This document shows positions 1 through 31,545 of a DNA stretch of 64,000 nt, one piece after another. A program made the position numbers and the translations under genes. The stretch is from a virus, in the IMG/VR virus record IMGVR_UViG_3300027822_000001, positions 28,596 to 92,595 of that record; one strand, given 5' to 3'. The stretch's first letter is position 1. Every line of letters starts with the position of its first letter. The notes beneath the pieces were generated by a model. That model saw nothing but the letters and a program-made list of their open reading frames with translations, did no database searches and had not been told where the DNA came from.

Positions 1-3000
1 ATACAAGTTAGTTTTTTAATTAGAACAACTGATTTTCTTGAAAAGTATGGAGATTGGACAGTTGATAAGAATGACTTCGTTGGTAAGTTGAATGAACAGA
101 AAGAACCAACATTAGATGCAGTAAATAAGATATTTAGAAATGAGAGTGCTAGCAAAGAAATGGAAGAGCCTACTAAACATGATGTGCTTAGAAAGAAACT
201 AGAATCTGATTCTAATTATAAATTGGGTGAGGCTTCTGTAGAAGAAGTAAGTGATATGTTAGAGTCTGGTGTTGCTCTTGCTACAAATCTTGTTATTAGA
301 GATAATGTTAAAAAGAGTACTATATTCAATGCCTTATTAAATACTTTTAGTATTCAAAGAAATAAAGCATCTAAGTTTATAGATTACCAAGAGTCCTTAG
401 CTGAGCATAATAAACTTCCAAAGTCTGAGCTAGATAAAATAAAGAGAGGAAAAGAGTTATTAGATACTATATTAGATAATGAAGAATATAAAACTAATTA
501 TCTAACCTTAATAGATTCTGAATTAGATAGTATGGGATTTAATACTATCAATAAAGAAGCCACTACAGACATAAATGATAAAAATGCTGAAAATCCTATA
601 CTTAAAGAAATGTGGGATGAGCAATCTAAGTTTGAAGTTCCTATTAAGAACACTTTGCAATTTAATATAAGGATGCTATTAGGCTCTATTCCTATTCCTG
701 AGTTAGATAATGGAAATTTAACGGGTAATTATAAAACCAACTCTATAGGACTAGCACATACATATACTTCAAATAATATAACTTTAAAATTATTAGACTA
801 CTTTAATCATAGGGTTGTAGATAGAAATTCATTTATGAGTGATTTGAAGTCCTCTGGAATACCTGAGTTTGTTGAGCTTGCAAGTAAAGTAGATAAACTA
901 TCATATAATAAAGATAGATTACTTAATGCTTTAACTGCTACTGTTGGTAGACTAAAAAACAATAAAGTTGTTGCTATATCTGAAGGAAATAATTTTATTG
1001 TTTATAATACTAATAACAGGTCTGATAGAAAATATATAACAGATACATGGTATGGAAATCAAAATATTCTATTTAAAGAATCCGATATTGTAGAGCTTAA
1101 TAAAAACAATGAATTAGTTTACTCTGAAACAGGCAAAAAAAGATTACAGCATGAGTATAATAATATACATCAAATATTAAATTCATCAAATACTAGACAT
1201 ATAGCTGCATCTCATTTTGTAGGTAAACTTAGTAGTTTAGTACACTCTGATAAGTTTGGAGAAGCTAAATCAGAAGAAAAGACTAAGATGCTTAATGATA
1301 TGATAAGTATGAAAGAAGGCAAGACTATAAAAAGTAATAGTTTATTGATGCCTGTGGAAGATGTATATTCATTATTACCTACCATACTAAAGAAAGGAAA
1401 AGACGGAAGAATTTCTTTTAAAACTTCTGACTATGATGAGCTGTCTAAAAAACTCTTAGACTTAGATATAAAAGAAGATACCGAAAATGTAGACGATGCA
1501 ATTAACATAAATAAAATAAATGTTGTATCTCCTTTAATACGACATTATTTAGCTCTTACTGGAATGGATTTTGAACTTGATACTATTAAGAAGTTCTTAC
1601 AAAATCCAGGAAGATACATGACTGATTTAACAGATGGAGTAACAGAACCAACTGTTAAACTTTCTGACTTAACTACTCCAAGAAAAGTAGCGAATGGTGT
1701 AAATGTTTTACATTTATTAATACAGGATATAAATAAAGGGGGCTCTGGACAAAAAGATGAAAATGCTAACAGTCTTAGAAATAACAACCCATTAAATACT
1801 AATGCTTCTAAAAAGGTATTTACTAAGTTGAAAGAAATTGAAGAGGTTGCTGATTTATCTTCTACTTTTATCAATTCTTTCGGTAAACAAGAGTCTTCTT
1901 ATGGCTTTAATACATTCTTATCAAAAGAGATTAACAACTTAAAAGGAAATACATTAGATGGAATGAATACAGACCCCCTATCAAGAAGAAGTCTCTGGTA
2001 TAAAGCCTTTAAAGGAGACGATTCTGTTGCTGGTTTGATTGAAAGACCTGAAAGATTATCTCTTTTGTTTGGTGATGGAGTTAAAGAAGCAAAGACTGGA
2101 AAAATAATTAACAGAGCTTCAGCATCACCTCTTGATAAAGAAGTTATGAGAATAAACTTATTTGCTTATAATAATGCTGGTTTTACTGATAGACTATCTG
2201 TTATAGATGCTTTAGTGTTTTCTGATAAATCTAGAACTAGAAAGATATTAGCTCCAAGAATTAGTTTAAAAGGAGAAGATTATAACTTTAATCTTGACTT
2301 TAAAAATAAGGAGAGTTTAAAAGACTATTCTATAAGTGATGTTCAATATGGAGATGACGTAAAACATGTACTTACTGATATGGCGTTAACTGAAATAGAC
2401 AGAATTAATGATACTGTATTAAGACACAAAGAAGCAAAAGATGTAATGACTTCTGAAAGAAGTATAGGTGGCTCTAAATTTTTAATATTTCCCTCATTAG
2501 ATAATAAAGTTATAAATTCTTTTAAAAGGTCTGATGGAAGTTTTGATACCTCTAATAAGGAGTTTATATCAAAGGTTCAAAAACATATGAATTTACTTTT
2601 AACAGCAAATGCTAATGAGAACTTAAAAGAATGGAAAGATGTTGATTTGATAAGAGCTTCTGGTGGTATTAAATATTTAGATAGTAGGCATAAAAAACAT
2701 GTTGGAGAGAAGATATCTGTAAAGGATAGTAATGATAGAAACATATTTAATTATGATAAAAGAACAAAAGATTCTTATGTAACAGCTGATACCGCTTTAG
2801 AATTAGCTCTTAATGAAATGGTAACTAATCTCAATATGATTCAGTTAGTTGGAGATGTTGCTGACTACTATAAAGCAGGAAATACTCCTGAAGAAACATC
2901 AGACAACACTTTCTCAAACTACTATAAAAGACTTGGAAGTGTAGGGGGTGCTAAAATGAATATAGCACAAGAATTTAGAGCAAAGTTTGGTAAAGTTACT

Positions 3001-6000
3001 AAGAATGTTAAACATAATAGAATAAATTATGTATATGCTAAAGATATTAAAACTAATAAATATGCTAAAGAATATTTAAATGCTCTTAATGTCTCTGGTT
3101 GGGAAAATGTAAATATGTCTGATGCTGCAGAATATACAACACTTAGAGACCACATAGTAACATTACATGGAGAAGGAAGACTTAATGATAATGTCTTTAA
3201 TAAGATACATTCCAAAATAATAGAAAGTTATAGAAATGACACTCTTGTTAAATTAACTGAAGATGAGGCTATTGCTATAATACCACAAAAACCTTTATAT
3301 GCGGGTACTAATAATGTTGATGGACTTAGAGTTGCTACTATTGTTAAGTCAAGTGCATTTCCTTTATTAGAAAGTATAACTGGAGGAACTCCTTTTGATG
3401 CTGTTAGAAAAGCAATGGAAGCTAAAGAGAAAGAAGAAATATTTGATAGAGACAATAAGTTAGCTTTTGATGATTCTAATGAAATTTTAGAGTTATCTAC
3501 TACTAGACTTGCTTTTGAATCTGGAGTAAAAGTAGGTAATGCTAAACTAAATGATATTTTTAATGAGGATTTTACAATTAAAGATGGAGCTTTAAAAGAC
3601 ATAAAATATACTAACGTAGACAGAGAACATTTAGGCATTCAACAAGAAGAAAGTGAGAATGATAGTAGAAAGATAAATATTGTAAGTCAAATGAATAAAC
3701 TCGTTACTTCTGAAATATTAGATACAAAAGGCTTTAAACTTCCTGATAAAGAAAAAGAAATGAGTGGTATTGAGTTAAGAGACTTAAAAGAGAAACTTAA
3801 AAAAGCTATAATGGATAAGAAAGCCATTAAGTTATTTAAAGATGTAGGATATGATGAAGCTACTAATTCATTTACAGATGAAAAGAAATTCATGAAGTAT
3901 CTTGAATCTAAATTATCTGCTAATGAGATATCAGCAGAAGATGTAAAGATGCTTATTGATAAGGATGGAAATCAAGTAGCTCCTCTATATCTTAATAAAT
4001 CTTATGGAAAGATAATGAGTTCTTTATTAGCATCTATTAGTAAAGATGTGATAAAACCTAAAATAAGTGGTAAAGGAGCAGTTCAATTAAGTAGTGTCGG
4101 ATTGCTATTTAATGGAGATATGAATAACTCTAACATCATATTTACTAGAAGAACTGATGCAGATGGCAACATAATTAAACTTGATAGATTAGAACATACT
4201 AAATATAAAAATGGAGAACTTAAAAGAGCTCAACTTTTAGTATCTAGAGAGTTCTTTGAAAAGTTTGGAATAGATTTAGATAATGCTACTGAAATCATTG
4301 ATGGTAGGAAAGTTATGAAAGAGGGAGTAATTGATGATAGACTATTAAAAGCAATATCAGCTCGTATTCCTAATCAAAAACACTCTAGTATGTTGCAAGC
4401 TGAAATAGTAGGCTTTCTACCAAAAGATGTTAAAGAAACAGTAATTGTATCAGATGGAATAACAAAACAGATGGGTTCTGACTTTGATATTGACCATTTA
4501 TATAACTATTTATATAACTATAAAGTACAGAAAATTACTCATAAAGAAGATTTAACAAAAGATTTAACTAAGTTTAACAAACTTGTGGAAAGAGCTAAAG
4601 AAGGATATGCTCCTAGAAAAAGTAATCTTCATAAAGTTTTAAAAAGTATGGATAGAGAAGACTATAATGAGGAACTAATAAAAATAGGAATAGCTAAACA
4701 TTTAGATAAATTTTATGATACTAAATCTAAACAACTTTACGATATAGTTAGAGATTTTAAGCTAAGTAAAATAACTATGGTTGATGCTAATAGAGATAAA
4801 ATTAATAAAATAACAGACTTATCTACAGAAGCATTAGAAAATAGATATATAGATATTCATCACTCTATACTGGAACATAAAGAAGTATTACCTAAAATGT
4901 TAGAAGTACTTGATTTACCTGATGCTAAATTAATTACTAAAGATATAGATAGCTCAGTTCCTAAAATAGAAAATACAATGTTCTCTCCTTTATCTGGAGT
5001 ATATAATAAAAGACAATATGAGAGTAATCAAGGAGGTAAAGATGGTATATCTATACAAAGTTCTTTGAGTATGCTTCATATTGCTTTAGAAAAAGATAAC
5101 TTTGAGTTACAGTTTAAAAAGTTTAGTGAAACTAAGAGAGAAAATGAAAATGTATTTAAATTTATAGTAGATGGTAAAGAAGTAGTATTTAAAGCTATAG
5201 GTAGAGGAAGTTATAATTTTAAAGGAAACAAGAGAACAAATCTTACTACTAATACTATACTACAAAATGAAGCTGTTGATAATGCTAAAAATAAATTACT
5301 ATTTAGATTAGGCTATTCAGCAGTAACTTCTCCAGCTTATAATTTATTAAACTTTCTTGCAAAAGATGGAAAGTCTATGCCTTTAAGTATGATAGCTAAG
5401 ATGTTTAGACAGAAAGGAGTATTAGAAGCTTATAGATATGCTGAGAATAAGACATCTATGTTTAATGATTCTTCTAAATCTTTCTCTGAGTATATGAAAG
5501 AATATGCATTAAATAAGTATGATGGAGATAAAAACTTTTCAATATCAGAGGAAATTTTAGATAAGGGGTTAAAAGGTAAAAATACTAGTGATTCTAGTTT
5601 AAATAATTCTGATTATGAAAGCTTGCAATCTACTCTTATTGATAAGTTATCTAAAGCTCAGGAATTTGGTTCTAATCTACTTAGAATATATTCATCAGCT
5701 AATTTAGAAACTAAAGGAATAGGAAGTTCTACTGGAGAGCTATTATTAAAAGAATACAACATAAATAAATTTGTAGTAAATAACTCTAGATTTAGAGGAA
5801 CTTATAGATTACTTGGAGATGCTATAAATATGGATAATGGAGTAAGAAATGTTGGTGGCAATCTTACAGAGCTTGGTAGAATTTATGATTATGGAATAAG
5901 AAAAGCTCTTAATTTTTATGAGTTAAGAGATATTAAGAATAATCCTAGAACAATGTTGGGAAGCTCTAGATATAAAAATACAATCAGACAGTTTATACGT

Positions 6001-8985
6001 TCTGGAGCAAATAGTGAGAAAGCTATAAAGAGAGTAGATGGAGCTTATGCTACATATGCTAATCTTAATATAGATAATCCATTCTTTAAATCATCTGGAG
6101 AAGCTGTAACTATTAATTCAGTAAGAAAAGTTTTATTAACTGGAGATAATGATGTTTATACCAGACTTATCAAGCATTTAAAAGAACCTAGTAACTTAGA
6201 GGGTAGAACATTCTTAAATAACATTAATGTTCTTCCAAAGAAAAATGTAGCAGACCCTGTTATACTTAAGTTAGTATCAGGAGACCTTTCGGATATAAAG
6301 ATAGATGAGTATATACGAAGTTTTAATGAGCTACTAACTAGTAATAATAGTAAGTCTCGAAACTTAGGTAAAGATATATTAAGAGTTATGCTTTCTCAAG
6401 GAAATGCATATTCTCCTAATGGAATAAATAAATTATTACCTAGAGCTTATTTAATGGAACATCCAGATTTTGTTAATGCTATTAAGAATAGTAGCTTGAA
6501 AGATATAAATTCTACTATACTGCATGAACAGATAGTTCAACATAATCCAACATTATCTGAGAAAGATTCTAACTATAAAAGAACTAAACAATTAGCCGAA
6601 ACTGATGGCTCTTATGTTCAGATAAATATTGAAGCAGATAAGGCGGATACTTTACCTGAATACTTATCTGGTAAAGACCCTGAAAGAGGATATGTTCCAC
6701 TTAAGAAAGTAGGTGTTGTAGAGTCGTTATCTAATGAAGAAACTATAGAAGTTATTTATAAAGCAATTTCTAAATTAGGAAGTGGTAACTCTAATATGAC
6801 TGAATATGACCCTTATAGTGTTGAAACTACTAGCCTTTTTAAGAACAACAACCCTTTAATGTCTTTTGAAGAATATGCTGAAAATAATAATTTAGAGCAT
6901 TTAAAAGATTTAGCAAATAACAGCTTACGATTACAAGATGATTATGGTTCTTATACAGTAGAAAGAAATGATAAAGATTTAATATTTGATGAATATAATA
7001 TAAAAGGAGATACACCAGAAGATTTAAGTTCTGTATTAAATAATGTAAGTGGTACAAATAAAGTAATAGCTGATGTTACTTCTGAGCTTTTAGATAAGTC
7101 TGCTAAATTTAAATTTAAAGTAACAGATGAAGCTAAGGATGGAGAATCTAGTCCATCAGCCAGAGGAGTTGTTACTGAAGATGGTTTAAGTATAAGACTA
7201 CATAACTTTGATACTGCTAATTCTGATAATCCAGAAGCATTTAGAAAAGAATTTGAAGAAGTAGTATCACATGAATCTAGCCATCAAGTGTTATTTAACG
7301 AAGCTGTTGCTTATGATAAAGGACTTTCTAAAAATAAGGGTAATAGGTTAGAAAAACAATTTGCTTTATTAGATACCTATTTAGGTAAACTAAAAAAAGC
7401 TATTATAGATGGAGATAATACAGAACGAGGTGAAGAGTTTAAAACTTTTGAAGATAAATACAATAATAAAATAGAAGGAGACATCTCTGTAAGTGAAAGA
7501 GATAGAAATCAAGGACTTATGTCTGTTCACGAATTAATAGCTGATATAGCTAATGATGGTTTCTTAGATTCTCTTAATGGCTATGAAGTTGATGGCTTAG
7601 ATGTTGCCAATACTCTATCTACTAAGATGAAAAGATTATATGTAGCACTCATTGAAAGTAAAGGGTTGCAGAATAACAAAGGAGCTCAAGAATTAATAGC
7701 TAATGTGCTTAAATTTTATGATGATGTTGCTAAGGCAAAAAAAGTTGATACTAGTGTTGAAAAGAAGGGAGAAGAAGCTCTTCCTGATGCACTTTTAAAA
7801 CAAAAAGAACATGAAGTTGTTAAGCCAGAAGAAGCTAAAGATATAAAATTTGATGATATTTTAGTTAAAAAAGAAAAAGGTGTTAAACCTAAACAATTAG
7901 AAAAAGATGAAAAAGGTTTCTATAATGTTAATATTAGTAGAGGAATAAAAATACCTAAAGACACTTCTACTATAGACTATTTAAGAGAGAAAGGAACATT
8001 TTCTAAGATAGCTGAGTATGGTACTAAGAATAGTAATGAAGCTCTGTATGAAATTGATAGATTAAATAAAATAGGAGCTGAAGACAATAAAAGATTTGCA
8101 CTTGATTCTTATATAAAACCGGATGGTTCTAGAATATACAAGCCAATAGAAGTGAGCTCTAGAAAGGATAGGATGTATAATTTTAGAGATAAAGAAACTA
8201 CTTCTGGAGTTCTTAAGGATATTGCATCCAACAAAGAATTTAGTAAAGATGTTAGAAATGCTGCAAATGACTTATTGAAATTTGAAAACACTGATAAAAT
8301 AGGAACATTCATTAGAAGTGATAAATACTTTATGGCTGAAAATGTGTTAAAAGATGAGAGCTTTGACTTTTTAGAGGAAGCCAATGGAACTGCTTCTGGA
8401 AATCTTGTAAGAGTTAGAGATGGAGCTACTGTAAGTGAATATTTACATGAAGTATATCATACATATTTAACAGACTTGATAGCTAATAATCCTAAGTTTA
8501 GAAATAAACTTAAAGATTATCAAAAAAGAGTGCTAGAAAATTTTAAAGATAATAGAATAATTGATGACATATATAAAGATTTAGACGAATTTGCTGTTAT
8601 GGCAGTAACTAAACCTGAGTTAATTTCCTTATTAAAATCTATGCACAGTGTAGATAAAGAAGGAAGTGTGTTATACGATGAACTTGTAGATAAGTATAAA
8701 GAAGCTGGTAAAGACACTGGAATATATGAAGAAATAAAGACCTTATTGAACGACAATATAAATATGAATAAAGGTGAGTTGTCGATTTCACAAGAGGCTG
8801 CGAATTGGAGCGATTACTATAATAGAGGTGGTACTGTTGATGGATTATCTGTTGAACAAAAATATCTAATAGGTATTGGAAAAGAACCAACAGAAGTCAA
8901 TAGTCATCTCAAAGAAATACAAGAAAGAGTTCCTAATTTTACAATGGCTGACCTAACAGAGTTGGCAAGAAGTATTTACTGTTAA
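1..8985 (+). CDS. Virion-packaged double-psi-beta-barrel RNA polymerase (crAss/phi14:2 gp66-like single polypeptide) with two C-terminal zincin-like domains; 5' truncated
   Basis: Frame +1 is open from base 1 (IQVSFLIRTTDFLEKYGDW...), so the true start is upstream of the window. Catalytic GSDFDID (DFDID at 4480-4494) is preceded by RIPNQKHSSM, with VDNAK downstream. HESSH at 7270-7284 and HEVYH at 8446-8460. Confidence 0.93.
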   Translation: MQVSFLIRTTDFLEKYGDWTVDKNDFVGKLNEQKEPTLDAVNKIFRNESASKEMEEPTKHDVLRKKLESDSNYKLGEASVEEVSDMLESGVALATNLVIRDNVKKSTIFNALLNTFSIQRNKASKFIDYQESLAEHNKLPKSELDKIKRGKELLDTILDNEEYKTNYLTLIDSELDSMGFNTINKEATTDINDKNAENPILKEMWDEQSKFEVPIKNTLQFNIRMLLGSIPIPELDNGNLTGNYKTNSIGLAHTYTSNNITLKLLDYFNHRVVDRNSFMSDLKSSGIPEFVELASKVDKLSYNKDRLLNALTATVGRLKNNKVVAISEGNNFIVYNTNNRSDRKYITDTWYGNQNILFKESDIVELNKNNELVYSETGKKRLQHEYNNIHQILNSSNTRHIAASHFVGKLSSLVHSDKFGEAKSEEKTKMLNDMISMKEGKTIKSNSLLMPVEDVYSLLPTILKKGKDGRISFKTSDYDELSKKLLDLDIKEDTENVDDAININKINVVSPLIRHYLALTGMDFELDTIKKFLQNPGRYMTDLTDGVTEPTVKLSDLTTPRKVANGVNVLHLLIQDINKGGSGQKDENANSLRNNNPLNTNASKKVFTKLKEIEEVADLSSTFINSFGKQESSYGFNTFLSKEINNLKGNTLDGMNTDPLSRRSLWYKAFKGDDSVAGLIERPERLSLLFGDGVKEAKTGKIINRASASPLDKEVMRINLFAYNNAGFTDRLSVIDALVFSDKSRTRKILAPRISLKGEDYNFNLDFKNKESLKDYSISDVQYGDDVKHVLTDMALTEIDRINDTVLRHKEAKDVMTSERSIGGSKFLIFPSLDNKVINSFKRSDGSFDTSNKEFISKVQKHMNLLLTANANENLKEWKDVDLIRASGGIKYLDSRHKKHVGEKISVKDSNDRNIFNYDKRTKDSYVTADTALELALNEMVTNLNMIQLVGDVADYYKAGNTPEETSDNTFSNYYKRLGSVGGAKMNIAQEFRAKFGKVTKNVKHNRINYVYAKDIKTNKYAKEYLNALNVSGWENVNMSDAAEYTTLRDHIVTLHGEGRLNDNVFNKIHSKIIESYRNDTLVKLTEDEAIAIIPQKPLYAGTNNVDGLRVATIVKSSAFPLLESITGGTPFDAVRKAMEAKEKEEIFDRDNKLAFDDSNEILELSTTRLAFESGVKVGNAKLNDIFNEDFTIKDGALKDIKYTNVDREHLGIQQEESENDSRKINIVSQMNKLVTSEILDTKGFKLPDKEKEMSGIELRDLKEKLKKAIMDKKAIKLFKDVGYDEATNSFTDEKKFMKYLESKLSANEISAEDVKMLIDKDGNQVAPLYLNKSYGKIMSSLLASISKDVIKPKISGKGAVQLSSVGLLFNGDMNNSNIIFTRRTDADGNIIKLDRLEHTKYKNGELKRAQLLVSREFFEKFGIDLDNATEIIDGRKVMKEGVIDDRLLKAISARIPNQKHSSMLQAEIVGFLPKDVKETVIVSDGITKQMGSDFDIDHLYNYLYNYKVQKITHKEDLTKDLTKFNKLVERAKEGYAPRKSNLHKVLKSMDREDYNEELIKIGIAKHLDKFYDTKSKQLYDIVRDFKLSKITMVDANRDKINKITDLSTEALENRYIDIHHSILEHKEVLPKMLEVLDLPDAKLITKDIDSSVPKIENTMFSPLSGVYNKRQYESNQGGKDGISIQSSLSMLHIALEKDNFELQFKKFSETKRENENVFKFIVDGKEVVFKAIGRGSYNFKGNKRTNLTTNTILQNEAVDNAKNKLLFRLGYSAVTSPAYNLLNFLAKDGKSMPLSMIAKMFRQKGVLEAYRYAENKTSMFNDSSKSFSEYMKEYALNKYDGDKNFSISEEILDKGLKGKNTSDSSLNNSDYESLQSTLIDKLSKAQEFGSNLLRIYSSANLETKGIGSSTGELLLKEYNINKFVVNNSRFRGTYRLLGDAINMDNGVRNVGGNLTELGRIYDYGIRKALNFYELRDIKNNPRTMLGSSRYKNTIRQFIRSGANSEKAIKRVDGAYATYANLNIDNPFFKSSGEAVTINSVRKVLLTGDNDVYTRLIKHLKEPSNLEGRTFLNNINVLPKKNVADPVILKLVSGDLSDIKIDEYIRSFNELLTSNNSKSRNLGKDILRVMLSQGNAYSPNGINKLLPRAYLMEHPDFVNAIKNSSLKDINSTILHEQIVQHNPTLSEKDSNYKRTKQLAETDGSYVQINIEADKADTLPEYLSGKDPERGYVPLKKVGVVESLSNEETIEVIYKAISKLGSGNSNMTEYDPYSVETTSLFKNNNPLMSFEEYAENNNLEHLKDLANNSLRLQDDYGSYTVERNDKDLIFDEYNIKGDTPEDLSSVLNNVSGTNKVIADVTSELLDKSAKFKFKVTDEAKDGESSPSARGVVTEDGLSIRLHNFDTANSDNPEAFRKEFEEVVSHESSHQVLFNEAVAYDKGLSKNKGNRLEKQFALLDTYLGKLKKAIIDGDNTERGEEFKTFEDKYNNKIEGDISVSERDRNQGLMSVHELIADIANDGFLDSLNGYEVDGLDVANTLSTKMKRLYVALIESKGLQNNKGAQELIANVLKFYDDVAKAKKVDTSVEKKGEEALPDALLKQKEHEVVKPEEAKDIKFDDILVKKEKGVKPKQLEKDEKGFYNVNISRGIKIPKDTSTIDYLREKGTFSKIAEYGTKNSNEALYEIDRLNKIGAEDNKRFALDSYIKPDGSRIYKPIEVSSRKDRMYNFRDKETTSGVLKDIASNKEFSKDVRNAANDLLKFENTDKIGTFIRSDKYFMAENVLKDESFDFLEEANGTASGNLVRVRDGATVSEYLHEVYHTYLTDLIANNPKFRNKLKDYQKRVLENFKDNRIIDDIYKDLDEFAVMAVTKPELISLLKSMHSVDKEGSVLYDELVDKYKEAGKDTGIYEEIKTLLNDNINMNKGELSISQEAANWSDYYNRGGTVDGLSVEQKYLIGIGKEPTEVNSHLKEIQERVPNFTMADLTELARSIYC

Positions 8986-8994
8986 TTTGTATAA

Positions 8995-11900
8995 ATGGCT
9001 AAATGTATAACATTTGATGCAACTCAAAGAAAAGAATTAGTTAATTTAATAGGGTATGACAAAGCTGAAGAACTAATAAATAAATATAAATCAAAAATAC
9101 CTGAAGCTGAAGTAATAAAAGGTATTAGAATTTGGGATGAATTAAGTAATAATCCAACCTATGCAGAAAGTAATGCTGACTTGCTAGAGAAATCAACTAT
9201 AGAATTTACAGCTTCTGCTAGCTCAGCTATCGGAAAGACTTTATTTAAGTTAAACAATGAACTTAAAAAACAAAGATTAAATCTACGAAATGATGTTGAT
9301 GCTGAAAAATCCAACGCTAAGATTGTAGAATTGGAAGATAATATAAGACAGCTTAAAAATAATAAAAGCTTAATGTCTATTGTAGATATAACTAAGACGA
9401 GCTTAGATAGCTGGATAAAAAAAGATGTGTTTGAAAGTAAAGATTATTCTATATCTACAGTTAAAAAAGCATATGATGAATTAGAAGTGCTTGATGGCAT
9501 TATAAAAGAATTACTTGTTAGAGAAGTAGATTTAAAAACTGGTAAAAATAAATATAAATTTACTAATAAAAAAGTATTTGATGAAGCTGAAAAAGTCGTA
9601 GGAGAGATAGCAATTACTAAGAATAAACTTAATGGTATCTTAGATAAAGTTGTATTAACAGAACATAATAAAGTAATGAATCGTAATGCTACAATAGATG
9701 ACTTAACTAACTATATAGATACAGATATGGGTACAGCTGTATTTCTAGACCCATCAAGGACTAAAAATCCAATAGCTAAATTTGTTCACAAAATAATGGC
9801 ATTTAGAAGTAAGAATGCTAAGGTGGAATTAAATGAAACATTAGTTAAAACTATTGATAAGTTAGCTAAAGATTCAGGTTTAGATATGACAAAACAAGCC
9901 AATAATGATATCTTCTTACAGAAAGACAAGAATGGAAAAACATTACCAAATATACTATCTGAATATAGCTATGAATACTCTGAATTTTATACTGATTTAA
10001 GAGACTCTTTAGCATCATACTCTAGAGTAGCTGAACATGTAAGTAGAAAGAATTCAAAGTTGGCTAAGAGAGGAAACGAATTAGTTGATAAAATAAATAA
10101 AAATTATATAGTAGCAGATACTAGAAAGCTACTAAGTAGTGATGAGAAAGTGGTAGAAGAAGAAAAAAGTAGGATGATTTCTGAAGTTGGTGAAGAAAAA
10201 GCAACCGAGTTAATTGAACAAGCCATAGATAGATATGATAAGTATCAAAATCAATATGAAGCTTATAAAGAGAGATTAGATATGAGTAAAGATAACGACT
10301 CAGATAGTATAGAAAGTGCTTCTAAGTTAGCCGCAAAACTAAAAAGCTTTGAAAATAGATATAGCCCTCTAAAAGTACTGGAGGCTTTAAGTGGTGAAGG
10401 CGGAGATATTCTTCTTAATGGTTTTTATAAGTTAGCAATAGCTCCAAAAAGAATGATAGACAATAAAGACACTGGCTTTTATGATAAACGATATAATGCT
10501 TTAAAAAACAATAAAGAAAACAGTAAAAAATATGAGCTACTTAGCTTTATTAAGAACAAATTAAAAGAATATTATAGCTATTTTCCGCCAGAAGTTACAG
10601 ATAAATTACAAGATAATTATTTAGCGGAAGTCTTTGGAGATAACTTATTTGATGTATTTAAAAAAGGCAATGTAAATATTCTAAAAGATAAAATATATGA
10701 ATCCGTAGCTACTAAAGAAGTTAATAATATACAGAGAGGTATTGTTAATGCTAAAAATCAACAAATAAAGAAAGTTCCTATAGAATACATGTCAGATAAA
10801 ATAGGAAATCTTAATTATAGAATAAAGCGGATAAATAGTAAAATTGAAGAAAATAATGATATTATAGAATCTTATTTGCAAGACATAGAAAAGTATCAGA
10901 CATCGCAACTAAAGTTTACAAATGTTAAGTCTATATTTGACAGCTATAACGAACGTATTAAAAGTAAATATGACAAAATAGCTGAATTAGAACAACAAAA
11001 TAGTGAACTTTCTTCTAAACCTAAAGAGTTAGAAGATGCTAAAAATCTAATGCTAGAAAAGAAATCTACTAATATTGTAGAAGTTATGAAGAACTTAGGT
11101 TTGATGTCTTTAAATTATAAGAATAAGATACAAATTCAAGATATAGTGGAACTAGCACGAAGAAAATTAGTCGATGGTGCTAATCAATTAGTAGAAACTA
11201 AGAAGGGAAGACCCTTACGTGCGGCAGTTACAGAGTATGTCAACAAGAACGGTCAATCTGCAGTAGAAAAAATGGTTAATGATTCTATGGATGCCATGCT
11301 ATATGGAGAATTTAAAAACAATAAAGGATTTACTGATAAGTATATTGGAATTGATGCTAAATCTAGAGAAAAGGTTTCTGACTACAAAAAAGAAAAAACT
11401 AAGCTAAAAGATAAGTTATTTAAAGGCGAGATTAAAGATGATGAATTCATAGAGTCTCTTGATACTATGAAAGAAATGTTAAATAAGGAAGCAGGAGTTA
11501 GAACAATGACTTTATCTGATGTTGCTGATACTTTTAATGCTTATGTATACAGACTTAATATGGGATGGAATCCTCTTAGTGCTGCCTCTAATGTTGTTTA
11601 TGGTAAGATGGCTAATCAGATAGAAGCAGGTGCTAATGTATTTTATAACAGTAAAGATTTAAAGAAAGCCTATAGACTACTAGGGGCTTCTGCAATGAAA
11701 TCATTAACTGGGAGTGCTAATACTACAGCTACAAAGATATATAACTTAATACTTAACTATGGTACTATGTTTGATTTGCTTGAAGATAGCTTTGGGGCTA
11801 CTAAAGGTCTATCAGACAAACAAAAGAAGCTAGGATTTCTTAATATGATGGAAGGTCAAAGAAGAGGTGAATATAGAAATCAAGGTGCTGTACTTTTAGC

Positions 11901-12750
11901 CATGATGGAACATGTTAAAGTTAAGCTTAAAGACGGTACTGAAATGTCTTTATTAGATGCACATGATAATTCTGGAAAGATAAGAGATGACGTAGAAAAC
12001 GTATCAGAATGGAAAGCTTTCACTGAAGATGGTACTATAAATAAAGCAGCTAAGTTTAGAGCTTCAGTTCAACAACTTGTTAAAAGATTGCACGGTAACT
12101 ATGACCCTGACTCAATGATGGCGATTAAGAAAAGTGTATTAGGTAGATTTCTAATGACCTTTCATACTTACTTACCAGAAGCTATAGCTACTAGATTTGA
12201 AACTGAAAAGTTTGATGAGGAACTTAACTATATAGTAAAAGGAAGGTATAGAACTTATGGTACTTTAGGATTTAAAAGGTCTTTAACGGCACTGTCAGAT
12301 ATAATTATGAATAAATATTTTAATAAAGATATAAGTAAGTATGAGAGTATACCTAAGATAGATTTAGAAAACATGAAAAGAAATGCAGTTGAGGTTCAGT
12401 GGGGCTTATCTATGATGGCTCTTACATTACTGTCTACTATGTTCTTTGATGATGATGATAGAAAAACATTTGCTATGAGGCATACCTTAGATTTACTAGG
12501 AAGAGCACAAAATGATATAAGTCAATTTGTTAGTCCACCTGCTATTTTAAATATGGTAAAGAATCCTTTTCCGCAGTATAGAGTATTACAAAGTATGTTC
12601 AAGTATCCAGAAGTTATATATAAATATAGCACTATGGATGACATACATCATGATAATGAATATTTATTTAGAAATACAGCTAAACAATTTCCAGGAGCTA
12701 AACAATTTCACAAGATGTTTTTAGCAGAGCCTTATAAAGGTAATCAATAA
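8995..12750 (+). CDS. Large virion ejection/cargo protein (crAss-like, follows the RNAP)
   Basis: 1251 aa, helical/coiled-coil, adjacent to the vRNAP. HGNYD...GRFLMTFH and KGRYRT motifs and a C-terminal hydrophobic helix (WGLSMMALTLLSTMFF) resemble crAss-like last cargo proteins. Confidence 0.75.
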   Translation: MAKCITFDATQRKELVNLIGYDKAEELINKYKSKIPEAEVIKGIRIWDELSNNPTYAESNADLLEKSTIEFTASASSAIGKTLFKLNNELKKQRLNLRNDVDAEKSNAKIVELEDNIRQLKNNKSLMSIVDITKTSLDSWIKKDVFESKDYSISTVKKAYDELEVLDGIIKELLVREVDLKTGKNKYKFTNKKVFDEAEKVVGEIAITKNKLNGILDKVVLTEHNKVMNRNATIDDLTNYIDTDMGTAVFLDPSRTKNPIAKFVHKIMAFRSKNAKVELNETLVKTIDKLAKDSGLDMTKQANNDIFLQKDKNGKTLPNILSEYSYEYSEFYTDLRDSLASYSRVAEHVSRKNSKLAKRGNELVDKINKNYIVADTRKLLSSDEKVVEEEKSRMISEVGEEKATELIEQAIDRYDKYQNQYEAYKERLDMSKDNDSDSIESASKLAAKLKSFENRYSPLKVLEALSGEGGDILLNGFYKLAIAPKRMIDNKDTGFYDKRYNALKNNKENSKKYELLSFIKNKLKEYYSYFPPEVTDKLQDNYLAEVFGDNLFDVFKKGNVNILKDKIYESVATKEVNNIQRGIVNAKNQQIKKVPIEYMSDKIGNLNYRIKRINSKIEENNDIIESYLQDIEKYQTSQLKFTNVKSIFDSYNERIKSKYDKIAELEQQNSELSSKPKELEDAKNLMLEKKSTNIVEVMKNLGLMSLNYKNKIQIQDIVELARRKLVDGANQLVETKKGRPLRAAVTEYVNKNGQSAVEKMVNDSMDAMLYGEFKNNKGFTDKYIGIDAKSREKVSDYKKEKTKLKDKLFKGEIKDDEFIESLDTMKEMLNKEAGVRTMTLSDVADTFNAYVYRLNMGWNPLSAASNVVYGKMANQIEAGANVFYNSKDLKKAYRLLGASAMKSLTGSANTTATKIYNLILNYGTMFDLLEDSFGATKGLSDKQKKLGFLNMMEGQRRGEYRNQGAVLLAMMEHVKVKLKDGTEMSLLDAHDNSGKIRDDVENVSEWKAFTEDGTINKAAKFRASVQQLVKRLHGNYDPDSMMAIKKSVLGRFLMTFHTYLPEAIATRFETEKFDEELNYIVKGRYRTYGTLGFKRSLTALSDIIMNKYFNKDISKYESIPKIDLENMKRNAVEVQWGLSMMALTLLSTMFFDDDDRKTFAMRHTLDLLGRAQNDISQFVSPPAILNMVKNPFPQYRVLQSMFKYPEVIYKYSTMDDIHHDNEYLFRNTAKQFPGAKQFHKMFLAEPYKGNQ

Positions 12751-12759
12751 ATAATAATT

Positions 12760-12787
12760 AGGGGATGCCGTTAGGTGTCCCTTTTTT
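12760..12787 (+). terminator. Rho-independent terminator of the RNAP/cargo operon
   Basis: AGGGGATGCC-GTTA-GGTGTCCCTT hairpin followed by a T run, 10 nt after the stop codon. Confidence 0.85.
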
Positions 12788-12817
12788 GTTTTTACTCCAA
12801 ACTTCGACAGATTGAAC

Positions 12818-12897: not shown

Positions 12898-13170
12898 TTA
12901 TTTTGAATCTTCGAGACTTTCTAGACTGTCTTTGTACTCTTTGAATATAGCTTCATAATCAACAGCTACCACATCAGATGCTTCTCCTGTGCTTATTGTA
13001 TCATTAAGCTTCTCATTTCCTCTTATTATTAGCTTCTTTTTAGTACCAACAGCCTCTAGTAAATTAGTAACTAGTAAGTTTGCGGCAGTTACATTCTTTG
13101 CTACAGTATATATTGAATACCATTCAGATTCCTTTGTTCCTATTGCTACTTTGTATAAGCTTAGTCTCAT
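12898..13170 (-). CDS. hypothetical protein
   Basis: 90-aa ORF coupled by ATGA overlap to the upstream gene. Confidence 0.7.
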   Translation of the reverse strand: MRLSLYKVAIGTKESEWYSIYTVAKNVTAANLLVTNLLEAVGTKKKLIIRGNEKLNDTISTGEASDVVAVDYEAIFKEYKDSLESLEDSK

Positions 13171-13961
13171 ATGTTTCTTTTAAATGATTCTTTATTAATA
13201 TTAGTTTGTTGCGGTGGAAGCTCTTTATATTTAGCTATTTCTTTTCTTATATAGTCTAAGCTTTCTTCCGGAGTTTCATTAGCTTTAGTGTAGTTAACAT
13301 AGGTATTATTAGGCTCTCCTAAAATAACTGTTGCTACTTCATATACTGGTTTTTTTATGTCATCTTCTAAAAAATATACTTCTTTAAGTTGTTTTACTCT
13401 TCTTGTTGCTCCTCCAACAGTCATTGCAACATTAGTATATCTTCTAATTAAACTTTTATCTCTATATTTTGCAAGCAGCTTCTTATACTTATATTCATTA
13501 CCATTAGCTTCATTAAAAGCTCTAATTGATATACTTTCTGGAGTTTTTGTATATTGGTTTATTTGCATATTAAAGTACTCTCCAGTAACTTCACTCTTAG
13601 GATTAGGTAGTATGGCTTTTAAGAAGTTTCTAGCTCCATCTCCTTTTGTAACCCACTTATCAGATAGGCTATCAAATTGTAGATTTATGAAGTCATCTTC
13701 TGTTATTCCAATATTTTCTAGGCTATGTCTTAAATGTTTAAGGACTGATTCTATGCTCCACACTGATTTTGCATATATTCTCCCTACCGCCTGAGATTTG
13801 TATGTCGTAGCAGGTTCAAATGTTCTTGAATGAGGGGTCTTATTAGTAGACCCCTTCATCCAAATAAACACATTCTTACTATTACTTAACACTTGTTGAA
13901 ATCCTATTATAGATAAGGTATCTACTGCAAAGACTGATTGTTTAGAGTTATAGTAATTCAT
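13167..13961 (-). CDS. hypothetical protein
   Basis: 264-aa ORF within the operon. Confidence 0.75.
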   Translation of the reverse strand: MNYYNSKQSVFAVDTLSIIGFQQVLSNSKNVFIWMKGSTNKTPHSRTFEPATTYKSQAVGRIYAKSVWSIESVLKHLRHSLENIGITEDDFINLQFDSLSDKWVTKGDGARNFLKAILPNPKSEVTGEYFNMQINQYTKTPESISIRAFNEANGNEYKYKKLLAKYRDKSLIRRYTNVAMTVGGATRRVKQLKEVYFLEDDIKKPVYEVATVILGEPNNTYVNYTKANETPEESLDYIRKEIAKYKELPPQQTNINKESFKRNI

Positions 13962-13972: not shown

Positions 13973-14395
13973 TTATTGTATTCCAGTACTACCAAATCCA
14001 TCTTTTCCTCGGTCAGTTTCATTAAGAGACTTAACCTCTTCTAATGTTACTTTTGTTATTGGATTTATAACCATTTGAGCAATTCTATCTCCTTTATGTA
14101 TTATTTGTACTCCTTCTCCATGATTGATTAAAATAATACCTATTTCGCCTCTATAATCATAGTCTATAGTGCCTGGAGAGTTAAGAACTGTTATTCCTTT
14201 CTTAGCAGCCAGACCACTTCTAGGTCTTATCTGAGCTTCTAATCCTACTGGAAGTTCAATATACAATCCTGTAGATATAACTTCCCACTCACCCGAACGT
14301 ATTACTTGTTCTACGTTACTTCTTAAATCCATTCCTATACTACCTGTAGTTTCATATTTAGGTAATGGATTGTCAGATTTGTTTACTATTTTCAT
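13973..14395 (-). CDS. dut: dUTPase (trimeric)
   Basis: Motifs GMDL, RPRSGLA, GTIDYDYRGE, GDRIAQ, RGKDGFGSTG. Confidence 0.97.
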   Translation of the reverse strand: MKIVNKSDNPLPKYETTGSIGMDLRSNVEQVIRSGEWEVISTGLYIELPVGLEAQIRPRSGLAAKKGITVLNSPGTIDYDYRGEIGIILINHGEGVQIIHKGDRIAQMVINPITKVTLEEVKSLNETDRGKDGFGSTGIQ

Positions 14396-20933: not shown

Positions 20934-23209
20934 TAATCATTTATATATGGTTTGGCTTCTATTGTTAATACTTCAGTGTATATAACAGAAGCTTCTTCCA
21001 TTGAAAGTCTTAAAAGAGAAGCTGCCATTTTACTCTTATTTTTGTCTGTTTCTAACATTATCTCATCATGTATATGATTAACTGGTTTTATTGTAGATAC
21101 CAAATCTATTCCTTTATCTTCTAATTTTTCCATCAATAAACATTCTGCTGTTTTAGTCATGTCAGCTGCAGTTCCTTGTATTCCTGTATTCATAGCTGCT
21201 CTTTCCATATCTCCTTTCAACGAACTTGTTCTTCTATTTAGTTGATATAAATCTGAGCCTTTTTCTTTTATTCTCTTATAAAACATACTGACTCCTTCTC
21301 TGCTAAATTGTTTTGTAAATTCTTTCTTTCTTCTGTCAAGTTCATTCATTCCTTGTCTATACTCTTTCCAATCTGGAAGCCATCTTCTTCGATTTGTTAT
21401 GTTATTTACTATAATAAATCCATGTTTGATAACTTTCTTTTTTTCTTCATCAAAGTAAATTTTTAATTCTGGAAAACCTTTCCAAAAACCATTCAATAAA
21501 TCATTAGCATCTTCTAAGCTTATTCCTTGGGAATCTTTTAAATTATAAGCACTTCCTCCAAATGAAATAAAAAAGTTTAAAACTTTTCCCTTTTGACGAA
21601 GAGAACAACTTATTCTATCATCTTCTACTTCATTAGTATCTTCATAAAAAGCATATAGCTTTTTATTAATCTCTTTTAAAGATGCTTTTGATATATCTAT
21701 AGGATATAAGTTACTCAGCATTTGCTTTGCAGTTTCTTCATCATTTTGAACTTCAACAGCTAAGCTATACTTTTTTACTATTATATCTCTATGTTCTTTG
21801 ATTGAGTATACTCTACTAGCAACCATACTATGACTGTCTCCATCTCCATTTTTAAAGAATTCTACAAAAGCTTTATCTTCAGATTTATCAGCCATCACTT
21901 GACTTTCCTGACCGGAGTAATCAGCCCCTACTATATCAGTATCTTCTTGAGACCTAAATAGCATCCTCCACTCAAGTCCTCCAGGTATCTGTGCTAAGTT
22001 CGGTTTCTTTAAAGCAACTCTACCTGTCTCTAATACTTGATTTACAGAACAGTGTATTCTATTAGTTCTTAAATTAATATGCTCCTTGTATTTTATACCA
22101 TAAGAGCTAATAAGTTTTGATATTTTCTTATATTTTATAAATTTAGATACTAAAGAGTATTGTTTATAGGCAGGTTTATCTAATTCTTTTATACCGATAG
22201 TTTCTTTACCATACTTATCTTTTATTGTTTTACCTACAGTTTTAAATATAATAGGTTTTATTTGTTTTTGAGAGTTCCAATTAAGTCTTTTACTGTCTTT
22301 TCCTTTATTTAACACTCTCACATCTTCTTCAAATAATGATTTTTGTATTACTTTTTTGACATTAAAAGGAATCTCTCTATATCCTTTTAACTCTTCAAAT
22401 TCGGCAATAGCTTGCTTATTTAAACTTAGTTCAATATCGTATCTTCTTTCTATATTTTTATCGTAAAGTTTTAACATTTCTGGAAGGTCAATAAATATAC
22501 CATTATACATCATATCGGCAAAATATAAAGATACTTTATTTTCTAACACAGTTACACTTAATTCATGCCTATTTGCTAAATCTTTTATTCTATCAGTTAA
22601 ACTATAATTTTTGTGAATTAAATTAAAAGTTAAAAGCTTTTCAATAAGTTTTTCATATATATCAAATAGTTCAACATCTCTTGCAGCATATTTTATCTGA
22701 CTTAGAGAGTAATTATTTCCATATAGAAAACTAGATTGTTCTGATTTTGGTATACTTATATCTAAATATTCTTTATATAGACCAGCTAAACTTGTTATAA
22801 AAGCTCTTCCATAATCGGTATATACAAATCTGTCTTTTCTTCCTTGTCTTAAAACTTTAGCACTAATAAGTAAATCAAATGTGTTATTTATTACAAGTCC
22901 AATACTTCTAAGCATATTTCTTTCAAAATATACATTAGCTACTATCTTTTCTATTTTTTTACTACTTAAGATATCTCCTAATTTATCAATATCACAAGTT
23001 GTAGCATCAAATACATATTGATTTTCTTTAGTGCCTAATTGTATTAATCTTACTTGATTAGGCTTAGTAAAGTCTAATCCAAAAGTTTCAGTATCTTCGC
23101 ATATGATAGCTTCTCTATTAATATCTTCTATTGCTTTATCTATAGAAAGTGGAGATATGCTACCATCGTTGTCTATAATTCTTCTTATATCTCCTACAAA
23201 ATAAATCAT
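20921..23209 (-). CDS. polA: DNA polymerase family A with 3'-5' exonuclease
   Basis: ExoI DTET, ExoIII YAARD, TGR..PNLAQIP, motif A DYSGQE, motif B RQKGKVLNF, IQGTAAD, motif C HDEI. Confidence 0.96.
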   Translation of the reverse strand: MIYFVGDIRRIIDNDGSISPLSIDKAIEDINREAIICEDTETFGLDFTKPNQVRLIQLGTKENQYVFDATTCDIDKLGDILSSKKIEKIVANVYFERNMLRSIGLVINNTFDLLISAKVLRQGRKDRFVYTDYGRAFITSLAGLYKEYLDISIPKSEQSSFLYGNNYSLSQIKYAARDVELFDIYEKLIEKLLTFNLIHKNYSLTDRIKDLANRHELSVTVLENKVSLYFADMMYNGIFIDLPEMLKLYDKNIERRYDIELSLNKQAIAEFEELKGYREIPFNVKKVIQKSLFEEDVRVLNKGKDSKRLNWNSQKQIKPIIFKTVGKTIKDKYGKETIGIKELDKPAYKQYSLVSKFIKYKKISKLISSYGIKYKEHINLRTNRIHCSVNQVLETGRVALKKPNLAQIPGGLEWRMLFRSQEDTDIVGADYSGQESQVMADKSEDKAFVEFFKNGDGDSHSMVASRVYSIKEHRDIIVKKYSLAVEVQNDEETAKQMLSNLYPIDISKASLKEINKKLYAFYEDTNEVEDDRISCSLRQKGKVLNFFISFGGSAYNLKDSQGISLEDANDLLNGFWKGFPELKIYFDEEKKKVIKHGFIIVNNITNRRRWLPDWKEYRQGMNELDRRKKEFTKQFSREGVSMFYKRIKEKGSDLYQLNRRTSSLKGDMERAAMNTGIQGTAADMTKTAECLLMEKLEDKGIDLVSTIKPVNHIHDEIMLETDKNKSKMAASLLRLSMEEASVIYTEVLTIEAKPYINDYWIH

Positions 23210-23649
23210 TTTACTTTGTCATACTTTACTACCATCATTACTTCACTAAGACTAGCTAAAGTTAATAAGCTACTCATACTTTTTCCTCTTACTAGAACTT
23301 TTGTAGCTCCATTAAAGTTTTCACTTAAAACATGAGTTACAATAACTAAATCTCCTATTTCCACTTCAATATTATAATTATCAGTTCTTTCTCCAGCAAG
23401 TATTACTTCATACACTGCTTCTTCTTTACTATTATAGTTAGGACTTCCAGGAACTATAATTTTATTTGTTTTTGGATATAATCTTACTTTCTCTAAAAGA
23501 AGCATATTACTTTTAAGCTTAACTATATTTAAAATTACTTCTTTCTCAACTAGTCTGTTCTTTTCGGCAATTTCTTCAATTTCATCTATTGATGTAGACT
23601 TTAAAGCATTTTCATACTTTGTAGCCATATTCTTAGGTTTACTAGACAT
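23206..23649 (-). CDS. GroES/Cpn10-like co-chaperonin
   Basis: NMLLLE...KIIVP...EVILAG...EVEIGDLVI pattern matches the GroES beta-barrel. Confidence 0.6.
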   Translation of the reverse strand: MSSKPKNMATKYENALKSTSIDEIEEIAEKNRLVEKEVILNIVKLKSNMLLLEKVRLYPKTNKIIVPGSPNYNSKEEAVYEVILAGERTDNYNIEVEIGDLVIVTHVLSENFNGATKVLVRGKSMSSLLTLASLSEVMMVVKYDKVK

Positions 23650-23673
23650 ATAATACTAGTTTTATTGTTAATA

Positions 23674-25938: not shown

Positions 25939-26630
25939 TTTTTATTAAATAATAAATAAGGTTTCTTATTAAGCTGAGTCATTTCAACAGCTTCTTCTAC
26001 TTTAGACATGTTCTTAGCCAGTATAAAATAATACTGTAAAAGCATAGCCTCATCATAAGAATCATCTAATCCATTATGCTTTTCAGAATAATCTAAAGTA
26101 TTAAAAGCATATTTATAGAAAGCTTCAACTGTAGTCTTAACTTTTCCTGTTTTAGTTGTAAATCCATTCTTTCTACAAAAGCAGTCATAGCAAGGCTTTT
26201 GACTTTCTACTAAAGCTGCTAATATAGCAATATCTAAAACAGGCATTATTTTTCTTATAATGTGATTACTAAGAGGTTTTTTGGCATGAGTATACTTTGA
26301 AAAAGTATAGCTTAATGCTCTAACGTCAAAGTTTACATTAAAAGCAGAAAACATATCATAGTTATTAAAGAGTTCTTCTTTAAATATCTCTTTAAACTCA
26401 GAGACAGTAACTACACGTGCTTTACCTTGTATAATTCTTTCTTCTAGTATATCTTTATTTTGATTATAAAAATAGGCTTTCTTGAACATTGGACTATTAT
26501 ATACATCTGATATTATATAATCCTTACTTTTTATGTCTCCTGTTTCAGTATCTAAAATTGACAGTCCTGCTTCATATATGTCAGCATTCTTTAAATCTAT
26601 TGTTTCAGTATCTATAACTAATATTCTCAT
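25935..26630 (-). CDS. DEDDh 3'-5' exonuclease (DnaQ-like)
   Basis: IDTET, AFNVNFD, HNGLDD. Confidence 0.85.
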   Translation of the reverse strand: MRILVIDTETIDLKNADIYEAGLSILDTETGDIKSKDYIISDVYNSPMFKKAYFYNQNKDILEERIIQGKARVVTVSEFKEIFKEELFNNYDMFSAFNVNFDVRALSYTFSKYTHAKKPLSNHIIRKIMPVLDIAILAALVESQKPCYDCFCRKNGFTTKTGKVKTTVEAFYKYAFNTLDYSEKHNGLDDSYDEAMLLQYYFILAKNMSKVEEAVEMTQLNKKPYLLFNKK

Positions 26631-26833
26631 ACTATTAAATTATAACTATCTCCAATACCTCTTAAAACTTTAGCAAGATGTAGTGCAAGATTAGCTTTAC
26701 CCTCATCACACATGCCTTCTAATATCTCCATTTGTTTATCTTTAGGGCAGTCTTCAAAAACAGTAAGTTGTCTTTTCTCTTCATCTTCAAATTTATAGAA
26801 GTAAAATACTCCCGATAAGTTTCTCCTATGCAT
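26627..26833 (-). CDS. hypothetical protein
   Basis: 68-aa ORF with coupled overlaps. Confidence 0.65.
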   Translation of the reverse strand: MHRRNLSGVFYFYKFEDEEKRQLTVFEDCPKDKQMEILEGMCDEGKANLALHLAKVLRGIGDSYNLIV

Positions 26834-27434
26834 ATAATTTATATTTGAAGTTATTAAAACTTTCTATACTTTTAAAACTCTTATATTTCTTTTCATCGTT
26901 TTCTATATAAGATATTAAAAGCATGTGTCTATTATCTTTCGTATTATCTACTTTTGAGGATATATGAATCCAACTTGGATTATCAATATCTCCAAATTCC
27001 CATATAAGTTGGTCAAAATCTAAGTTTTCAACAACAAAATAGAACATTTCAGAATTAGTTACTCTTCCATAAGTATCATCTATATCCATTGCCTCACACT
27101 TTACATGTTGAGACCTATAAGAACCGCCAACTTTGATATTTAAAAATAGACATCTATACATGGAGTTTATCTTAATCATGACTCCAAAGTTATCTCTTAT
27201 AGGCTCAAATAGGAGTAGTCCTAATTTTTTTAATTTAGTAAATTGAGCTTTTGAAGGGCGATTATCTATTCCTAACCTTTTAGCCTTATATGAGTAATAA
27301 CATTCTTTTATAGATATGTGTGGTGTTAACATACCTTTTCTTAGCATTTTCTTTTCATTTAAATTGTTATATTGTTTATTATTAATTAGCATTATTAGTG
27401 CTTCCTCTAACGTTTTAGGCAACTTATCTTTCAT
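26826..27434 (-). CDS. Peptidase M15 family Zn-dependent cell-wall peptidase (endolysin-like)
   Basis: INSMYRC..LN..VGG..SQH...EAMD, FDQLIWE, WIHIS. Confidence 0.9.
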   Translation of the reverse strand: MKDKLPKTLEEALIMLINNKQYNNLNEKKMLRKGMLTPHISIKECYYSYKAKRLGIDNRPSKAQFTKLKKLGLLLFEPIRDNFGVMIKINSMYRCLFLNIKVGGSYRSQHVKCEAMDIDDTYGRVTNSEMFYFVVENLDFDQLIWEFGDIDNPSWIHISSKVDNTKDNRHMLLISYIENDEKKYKSFKSIESFNNFKYKLYA

Positions 27435-27571
27435 TTTTCTGTATTTTTTAAAAAGTTAAAAATTCGTACTTTTTGTAAATTAAAAAAGCATCCTGATTTA
27501 TAGTAGCGGGATAGCATCAAAAACCGGTAAAAGTCCAAAAAATCAACTTTAAATAGAAAATTCGACAATTT

Positions 27572-29047: not shown

Positions 29048-29049
29048 AA

Positions 29050-29364: not shown

Positions 29365-29367
29365 ATT

Positions 29368-30714: not shown

Positions 30715-30720
30715 AATATG

Positions 30721-31541: not shown

Positions 31542-31545
31542 TATA

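Follow-up and report, generated by a model that had tools for sequence, protein, structure and literature searches.

The closest described parallel to the gene arrangement reported here comes from cyanophage A4, whose pre-ejectosome was resolved by cryo-electron microscopy (cryo-EM) at 3.4-3.6 Å and contains a disulfide that joins gp27 Cys1715 to gp26 Cys5 (PNAS 2025, PMC12002296). In the outer layer of this assembly, gp27 reaches with its C-terminal helix into a cleft of gp26 (PMC12002296), and in the A-4L record (Anabaena phage A-4L) gp27 (1717 amino acids (aa), sole Cys at -2 from the end) adjoins gp26 (1114 aa, sole Cys at residue 5, MSKHC). This layout of adjacent genes, with a sole Cys near the upstream C-terminus and near the downstream N-terminus, recurs at the junctions of three cargo genes of a crAss-like phage (IMG/VR record IMGVR_UViG_3300027822_000001, here G000; 92,595 bp, 30% G+C), where the middle protein, a virion RNA polymerase, has one Cys per end. 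The window, i.e. the whole stretch of 64,000 nucleotides that was analysed, corresponds to bases 28596-92595 of this record. A4 differs from this phage in having one link and not a chain of three, no RNA polymerase and a pentameric folded ring, and its bond was reported as a structural detail and not as a rule tied to gene fission or fusion (PMC12002296). In crass-like phages, the terminal Cys pattern is conserved and is coupled to the fission and fusion of the cargo genes. Each pair of residues probably makes up a clasp between two proteins, most likely a disulfide, which would chain the cargo proteins end to end.

Crassvirales are the most abundant phages of the human gut. In crAss001, mass spectrometry of virions detected gp45, gp46, gp47, gp49 and gp50, which were placed in the capsid cargo zone; the virion tail contains disulfides, and of cargo order it is said only that packing and mutual interactions probably control it (PMC10172136). 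Three cargo proteins are fused in some phages, the fused forms being assumed to be cleaved (PMC10172136; bioRxiv 10.1101/2020.03.07.982082), and a zincin-like domain has been stated for gp65 orthologues (bioRxiv 10.1101/2020.03.07.982082). The genes g067-g066-g065 of phi14:2 and gp47-gp50-gp49 of crAss001 resemble the present locus in their homologous DFDxD polymerase, homologous last protein and terminal Cys pattern, but their identity to this phage is only ~21-29%. In addition, phi14:2 is split after the polymerase on the other side of the zincin motif, and the cargo genes of crAss001 lie on two strands. The N4-like phages (Schitoviridae; virion RNA polymerase (vRNAP) gp50/gp71 and partners) share a giant injected virion RNA polymerase, probably unfolded like beads on a string, and a ban on internal Cys, although theirs is a single chain without terminal Cys as opposed to three polypeptides with four terminal Cys here. 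The N4 polymerase belongs to the T7-like single-subunit family and differs from the type represented by 6VR4 (phi14:2 gp66). In the ejection proteins of N4-like phages Cys makes up 0.00075% of residues versus 0.865% in the proteome (PMC11445570), and the N4 vRNAP is thought to pass unfolded (PMC13434306). An initial annotation of the window had treated periplasm crossing as the established cause of such avoidance; it is a tentative published suggestion, made for N4-like phages (PMC11445570).

The cargo chain of this phage, read across the whole genome, consists of a 1961-aa protein (G000 22488-28373, + strand), the 3062-aa virion RNA polymerase in the middle (G000 28392-37580; 5'-truncated by the window and covering its positions 1-8985, + strand) and a 1251-aa protein (8995-12750, + strand) homologous to crAss001 gp49 and phi14:2 gp65. 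Only four Cys occur in these 6274 residues, each at most four residues from the terminus that faces the next protein. The 1961-aa protein has its sole Cys as last residue (...NNKGC), and the polymerase, which starts MRC..., has Cys at residue 3, encoded 204 bases before the window begins, and as last residue (...ARSIYC) and no others. The earlier claim that the polymerase carries Cys only at its final residue thus holds for the 2994 residues inside the window and fails for the full protein, while the Cys-terminated upstream partner and the N-terminal polymerase Cys that the same annotation had envisaged are both present beyond the window edge. At the junction inside the window, the upstream half of the putative clasp is the TGT codon of Cys3062 (8980-8982, + strand), followed by the TAA stop (8983-8985) and a 9-base spacer TTTGTATAA (together 8983-8994, + strand), with an in-frame TAA directly 5' of the next ATG. 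The downstream half is the TGT codon of Cys4 (9004-9006, + strand) in the 1251-aa protein, which starts MAKC and, as first noted from the window, has no other Cys. Start codons are unambiguous, with an in-frame stop 0-1 codon upstream and no further Met within 100 residues. Two cargo-like genes farther upstream (886 aa and 775 aa) contain zero Cys.

Neither the scarcity nor the placement of these residues fits random expectation. At the 0.62% Cys of the phage's other proteins, ~39 would be expected in the chain versus the four observed (Poisson P(<=4) ~1e-12); with the other + strand virion genes alone as reference (0.36% Cys), the expectation is ~23 (P ~2e-6). For one Cys to fall by random placement within four residues of every facing terminus (four in all), the probability is ~4e-12. 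TGY triplets number 4 in the coding frame versus 73 and 318 in the other two frames, and antisense open reading frames (ORFs) inside the polymerase gene reach 1.5-1.8% Cys, which indicates that base composition is not the cause of the Cys scarcity; this explanation was rejected on these figures. A pattern without function, arising by chance, base composition, a translational-coupling DNA motif or mis-called gene ends, could find some footing in the sequence TGTTAA at both junctions of this genome and in its 30% G+C. It is nevertheless extremely unlikely in view of the placement probability, the TGY counts, the unambiguous starts, and a pattern that spans the two strands of crAss001, gaps of up to 505 nt and ~70 diverged junctions. 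As a general feature of the whole record, Cys amounts to 0.36% in + strand (virion) genes versus 0.95% in - strand (replication) genes, and several large virion proteins have 0-1 Cys.

The terminal Cys pattern is present in all cultured relatives that were read (crAss001, phi14:2, FpV4 and CrAssphage ZA). In crAss001, gp47 has its sole Cys at 2339 of 2341 residues, gp50 has Cys 5, 1334 and 2404 of 2412, and gp49 has Cys 5 only. In phi14:2 the sole Cys of g067 is the last residue, g066 has only Cys 3 and 2179 of 2180, and g065 only Cys 3. FpV4 has the upstream protein and polymerase fused (4287 aa, sole Cys 4286) and a next protein starting MAC, and in CrAssphage ZA, the prototype gut type, the upstream protein ends in ...FSCM and the polymerase reads MSC from its first ATG. 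The pattern extends outside Crassvirales to Leptolyngbya phage Lbo-JY46, a 125-kb cyanophage (L095:444-13350), in which a 1552-aa protein with its sole Cys as last residue is followed by a 2748-aa protein with its sole Cys at residue 4, a gp49-like C-terminal domain and no DFDxD. As gp47 of crAss001 lies on the strand opposite to gp50-gp49 and intergenic gaps at junctions in other genomes range from -10 to +505 nt, the rule operates at the protein level and not as a DNA junction motif. A role of the shared TGTTAA as such a motif was rejected on these grounds.

A HMMER search with residues 1-1200 of the 1251-aa protein returned 1169 homologues at E<1e-3, from which 153 proteins were analysed (the query, 3 word-search hits and 149 representatives at <=50% identity). 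Cys falls within residues 2-8 in 91 of the 153, including 55 of 69 stand-alone forms (1100-1700 aa), where it is usually the only Cys, and 23 of 30 forms of 3000-4900 aa, mostly polymerase and gp49-like protein fused, where it is usually the sole one as well. None of the 19 proteins of at least 4900 aa has it, and these contain 4 Cys in 105,193 residues in total. Conservation of the terminal Cys in homologues, on which the initial annotation had made its proposal depend, therefore holds in distant relatives. A scan of viral contigs with a single protein turned up no relative, the word-based homologue search yielded 4 proteins only, and phmmer with the terminal 300 or 500 residues of the window proteins gave almost no matches in the loci described below; the termini evolve fast, and a deep alignment of this phage's own clasp was not obtained.

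In many relatives the RNA-polymerase block that occupies three genes here is one polypeptide of ~5000-6900 residues. Ninety loci were compared, 80 of them viral-contig loci around the catalytic motif and 10 metagenome loci (alignment A3), using + strand ORFs under table 11. The architectures seen, given in crAss001 gene numbers, were 47+50 / 49, 47 / 50 / 49, 47 / 50+49, or more pieces. In all of them, breaks are flanked by an upstream Cys 0 to -3 from the end and a downstream Cys at residue 3-6 (exceptions L050, L034, L023 and L044), while ORFs that run without a break over 4730 to more than 6889 aa lack a terminal Cys. Across 154 junctions of adjacent large ORFs, both Cys are present in 73, neither in 73, only the upstream one in 0 and only the downstream one in 8, and 72 distinct concordant junctions were counted among the loci. 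Six of the 8 downstream-only cases involve a Cys-rich, apparently unrelated downstream protein, and the other two are L023 and L044. Junctions to the gp46-like gene never carry Cys, and frameshift-like breaks in near-identical genome pairs (L065 vs L066, L071 vs L053), which serve as a negative control, have none. In the 163 ORFs that reach at least 1000 aa (448,715 residues in all), Cys makes up 0.02% of internal positions versus ~5% in the terminal ten-residue windows.

These counts also bear on the alternative that each terminal Cys binds another virion component, such as the portal, an inner capsid protein or a tail protein, or is acylated, the pairing at junctions being indirect. Such a partner could account for the first cargo protein of FpV4, which has an orphan N-terminal Cys 5 and no upstream C-terminal Cys, and many disulfides are indeed found in the tail among crAss001 virion proteins. 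An indirect pairing is however unlikely to leave upstream and downstream Cys appearing and vanishing together (73/73/0/8), and fused forms need no terminal Cys. It also sits poorly with a one-to-one stoichiometry inside the chain and with a copied cassette in one locus (L064, see below) that brings both halves. The FpV4 protein in question (ALN97143, L083:2036-3832) is a 598-aa cargo-like protein starting MKKKC, in which Cys 5 is the only Cys.

The breaks do not lie at one position of the block. By lineage, the catalytic motif is found ~270, ~1300-1600 or ~2270-2410 residues from the N-terminal Cys. In most lineages the zincin-type HExxH precedes the C-terminal Cys by 180-840 residues (HEVYH at -179 in this phage), and in phi14:2 g065 (residue 245) and L069 it lies ~250 residues after the N-terminal Cys. 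These varying distances indicate that the split sites are not homologous and do not go back to one ancestral site. On the catalytic-core tree (80 rows), at least 13 state changes per junction are required, a rough count as the tree was made with FastTree only and has several long branches. Among phylogenetically independent pairs, the N-terminal Cys tracks the split at the first junction in 6 of 8 and never shows the opposite (p ~0.03); at the junction after the polymerase it does so in 3 of 4, an under-powered comparison (p = 0.25).

The HExxH motif itself invites another reading, in which a terminal Cys caps the zinc of a zincin-like protease and keeps it latent until ejection, as in the pro-domains of matrix metalloproteinases. 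In this phage the candidate motif HEVYH (8446-8460, + strand; polymerase residue 2884) stands in the conserved context h-h-h-H-E-x-x-H-x-x-T, and its distance of 179 residues to the C-terminal Cys has its like in many relatives (180-440). Such a Cysteine switch is very unlikely, since the junction between the 1961-aa protein and the polymerase has a Cys pair far from any HExxH, crAss001 gp49/gp50 keep the pair without an HExxH near the junction, and one Cys would suffice where two are found. A second HExxH (HESSH) is located at residue 2492 of the full polymerase.

If the paired Cys form a clasp, the C-terminal tail of the upstream protein would dock on the N-terminal region of the next protein, and an intermolecular disulfide would then join the two thiols upon assembly or release of the particle. 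In the virion there would be one covalent chain from the 1961-aa protein through the polymerase to the 1251-aa protein, in 1:1:1 ratio and in the order of the fused form. Selection would remove all other Cys, as it does in other ejected phage proteins, and would thereby prevent wrong disulfides, and the reducing cytoplasm of the host would open the links and free the three proteins. We infer the disulfide in this phage, its timing, its opening in the host and a role in packaging stoichiometry or ejection order, and ordered threading through the tail by way of the Cys links is speculative.

Alternatively, a metal ion (Zn, Fe or Cu) could bridge the two junction thiols, which would give the same tether and work in an anoxic setting. 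Paired and co-varying Cys are compatible with any thiol-thiol link, gut crassviruses are made and released at low redox potential, and the zincin-like HExxH in the polymerase block would imply zinc around. The chemistry of the termini makes a metal site improbable: each terminus has exactly one Cys with Lys beside it, and neither a second Cys nor a conserved His or Asp is found close by; for want of such ligands a disulfide is favoured. The sole solved case, that of A4, is likewise a disulfide. The bridge between C-terminus and N-terminus that the initial annotation had proposed as either disulfide or metal is in this way supported in part, by the Cys checks, the conservation and the bond seen by cryo-EM in A4.

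The residues around the Cys are themselves recurrent. Upstream tails aligned on the Cys are Lys-rich at -3 to +1, and downstream heads often read M-x-x-C-P-N-K/I-N-x-P-E-W. In many relatives the Cys is followed by a small, helical adaptor with the consensus C-P-N-K-N-x-P-E-W-K-x-L-V...V-G-E..., and M1, C4 and G20 are invariant in alignments A2/A3. A hidden Markov model (HMM) built from the first 70 residues of 39 heads matched 56 N-termini, 42 of gp49-like and 14 of polymerase-bearing proteins; only 3 internal sites were matched, and none in loci ORFs lacking a split. A Pfam/PHROG search with the adaptor found no family. In this phage, residues 13-46 of the 1251-aa protein (9031-9132, + strand) could be a divergent copy of the N-terminal adaptor, based on a weak HMM match (i-Evalue 3.7e-5).

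How such a junction may arise is suggested by L064, whose block has three parts; it falls inside a clade in which the first junction is fused in all other members. The two junctions of L064 (7100-7400 and 13550-13900) are near-copies of each other, in which the heads agree (z = 31) as do the tails (...E-Q-x-x-E-I-x-x-x-K-C-K-G, z = 9), and nothing in the fused sisters corresponds to residues 1-61 of its polymerase protein. Shared head, shared tail and unmatched residues together point to a new split made by copying a cassette of tail, stop, start and head, Cys included. Perhaps crass-like phages and some cyanophages possess a portable split-and-staple device, consisting of a Lys-flanked C-terminal Cys tail and a ~45-60-residue N-terminal adaptor starting M-x-x-C. 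Such a device would be copied into the gene of a giant ejected polyprotein and divide it into pieces that are translated separately; disulfides would rejoin these in the particle, and a covalent thread of >6000 residues would be injected and cut back to working subunits by the reducing cytoplasm. This extension is possible, though we hold it with less confidence than the clasp itself.

Several observations weigh against a disulfide clasp. L050 is split without Cys on either side, L034 has a Cys-less 584-aa ORF between the partners, and the upstream Cys lies 14 (L023) and 11 (L044) residues from the end. Phage particles are put together in a reducing cytoplasm, and the habitat of gut crassviruses is anoxic. 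The two clasps of L064 are near-identical, and the clasp alone would thus hardly be able to dictate order there. A4 gp26/gp27 serve as an analogue more than as an established homologue, no sequence or profile similarity to the proteins of this phage having been detected: blastp and phmmer comparisons of the cargo proteins with A4 gp27/gp26 gave no match, and hhalign a probability of 0.2%. Finally, the virion study of crAss001 makes no mention of terminal Cys (PMC10172136), and Cys of the cargo proteins go unmentioned both there and in the preprint on the fused forms (PMC10172136; bioRxiv 10.1101/2020.03.07.982082).

Full-text literature searches and the key crassvirus papers contained no statement of such a rule for Crassvirales and none tying it to fission or fusion. 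The mechanism, initially considered undescribed, has a known precedent in the A4 disulfide (PMC12002296), while no paper was found that states a general rule or applies it to Crassvirales. If true, a redox-reversible chain would be a concrete, testable mechanism for the packing and injection of ~700 kDa of RNA-polymerase proteins, and would account for stoichiometric packaging, ejection order and subunit release in the cell. It would also make sense of a block that is encoded by a single gene in some phages and by two, three or more in others, offer a simple annotation rule for which giant ORFs belong together, and represent a natural example of a transferable protein-ligation tag.

The identity of the cargo proteins follows from their matches. 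The polymerase matches crAss001 gp50 (blastp, E 2e-17) and PDB 6vr4_A, the solved phi14:2 gp66 polymerase (E 1.5e-15), and its catalytic motif DFDID (residues 1562-1566; 4480-4494, + strand) falls in the invariant D-F-D-x-D columns of alignment A1. The 1251-aa protein matches crAss001 gp49 (blastp E 1e-15; tblastn too) and is, on this sequence match, its counterpart, and the 886-aa protein matches the cargo protein gp45. Packing into the virion and injection are known from the literature for the phi14:2 and crAss001 proteins (PMC10172136; bioRxiv 10.1101/2020.03.07.982082). Homology and a position after the gp45/gp46-like genes suggest that the cargo proteins of this phage would be packed and injected. 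PHROG and Pfam searches gave no family for the 1251-aa protein or for the last 999 (PHROG) and last 200 (Pfam) residues of the polymerase.

The AF2 model of the 1251-aa protein (predicted local distance difference test (pLDDT) 81.7, predicted template modelling score (pTM) 0.81) is mostly helical, with Cys4 on an unconfident tail (residues 1-6, pLDDT below 50), helices at 9-19 and 21-30, a low-confidence linker at 45-76 and, beyond it, a large helical body. Searches of the PDB by sequence and profile, and with Foldseek and VIA, using the protein or this model, returned coiled-coil and helical-hairpin noise only and no A4 gp26, and fold searches with a 1200-residue model gave generic helical matches only. 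A predicted complex of the last 200 polymerase residues with residues 1-780 of the 1251-aa protein scored 0.00 and carries no weight either way.

Further Cys-containing features were seen around the cargo blocks of relatives. In L059, L064, L070 and L072 (~19000 to locus end) and in L012:19625-23914, the Cys-free cargo block is followed by a Cys-rich protein, with Cys at ~6, 11, 19, 29, 50 and more. Six internal Cys within ~300 residues occur toward the C-terminal part of the polymerase in L014:8018-18727 and L017:2885-16012, and this cluster may be an inserted metal-binding domain. A scan of this genome for thioredoxin-type CxxC motifs found none; CrAssphage ZA has two annotated thioredoxin genes just downstream of its cargo block (L096:24322-24615 and 25332-25601).

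Immediately after the 1251-aa gene ends, at ~12760-12800 (+ strand), the sequence has a short hairpin rich in G+C and then a T-run (GGGGATGCC...GGTGTCCC TTTTTTGTTTTT). This element looks like a terminator closing the + strand virion/cargo block, and the genes beyond are on the - strand. The first ORF of this - strand block (13167-13961) encodes 264 aa without assignment, and the second gene is a dUTPase gene (13973-14392, - strand; PHROG 135, E 5e-52).

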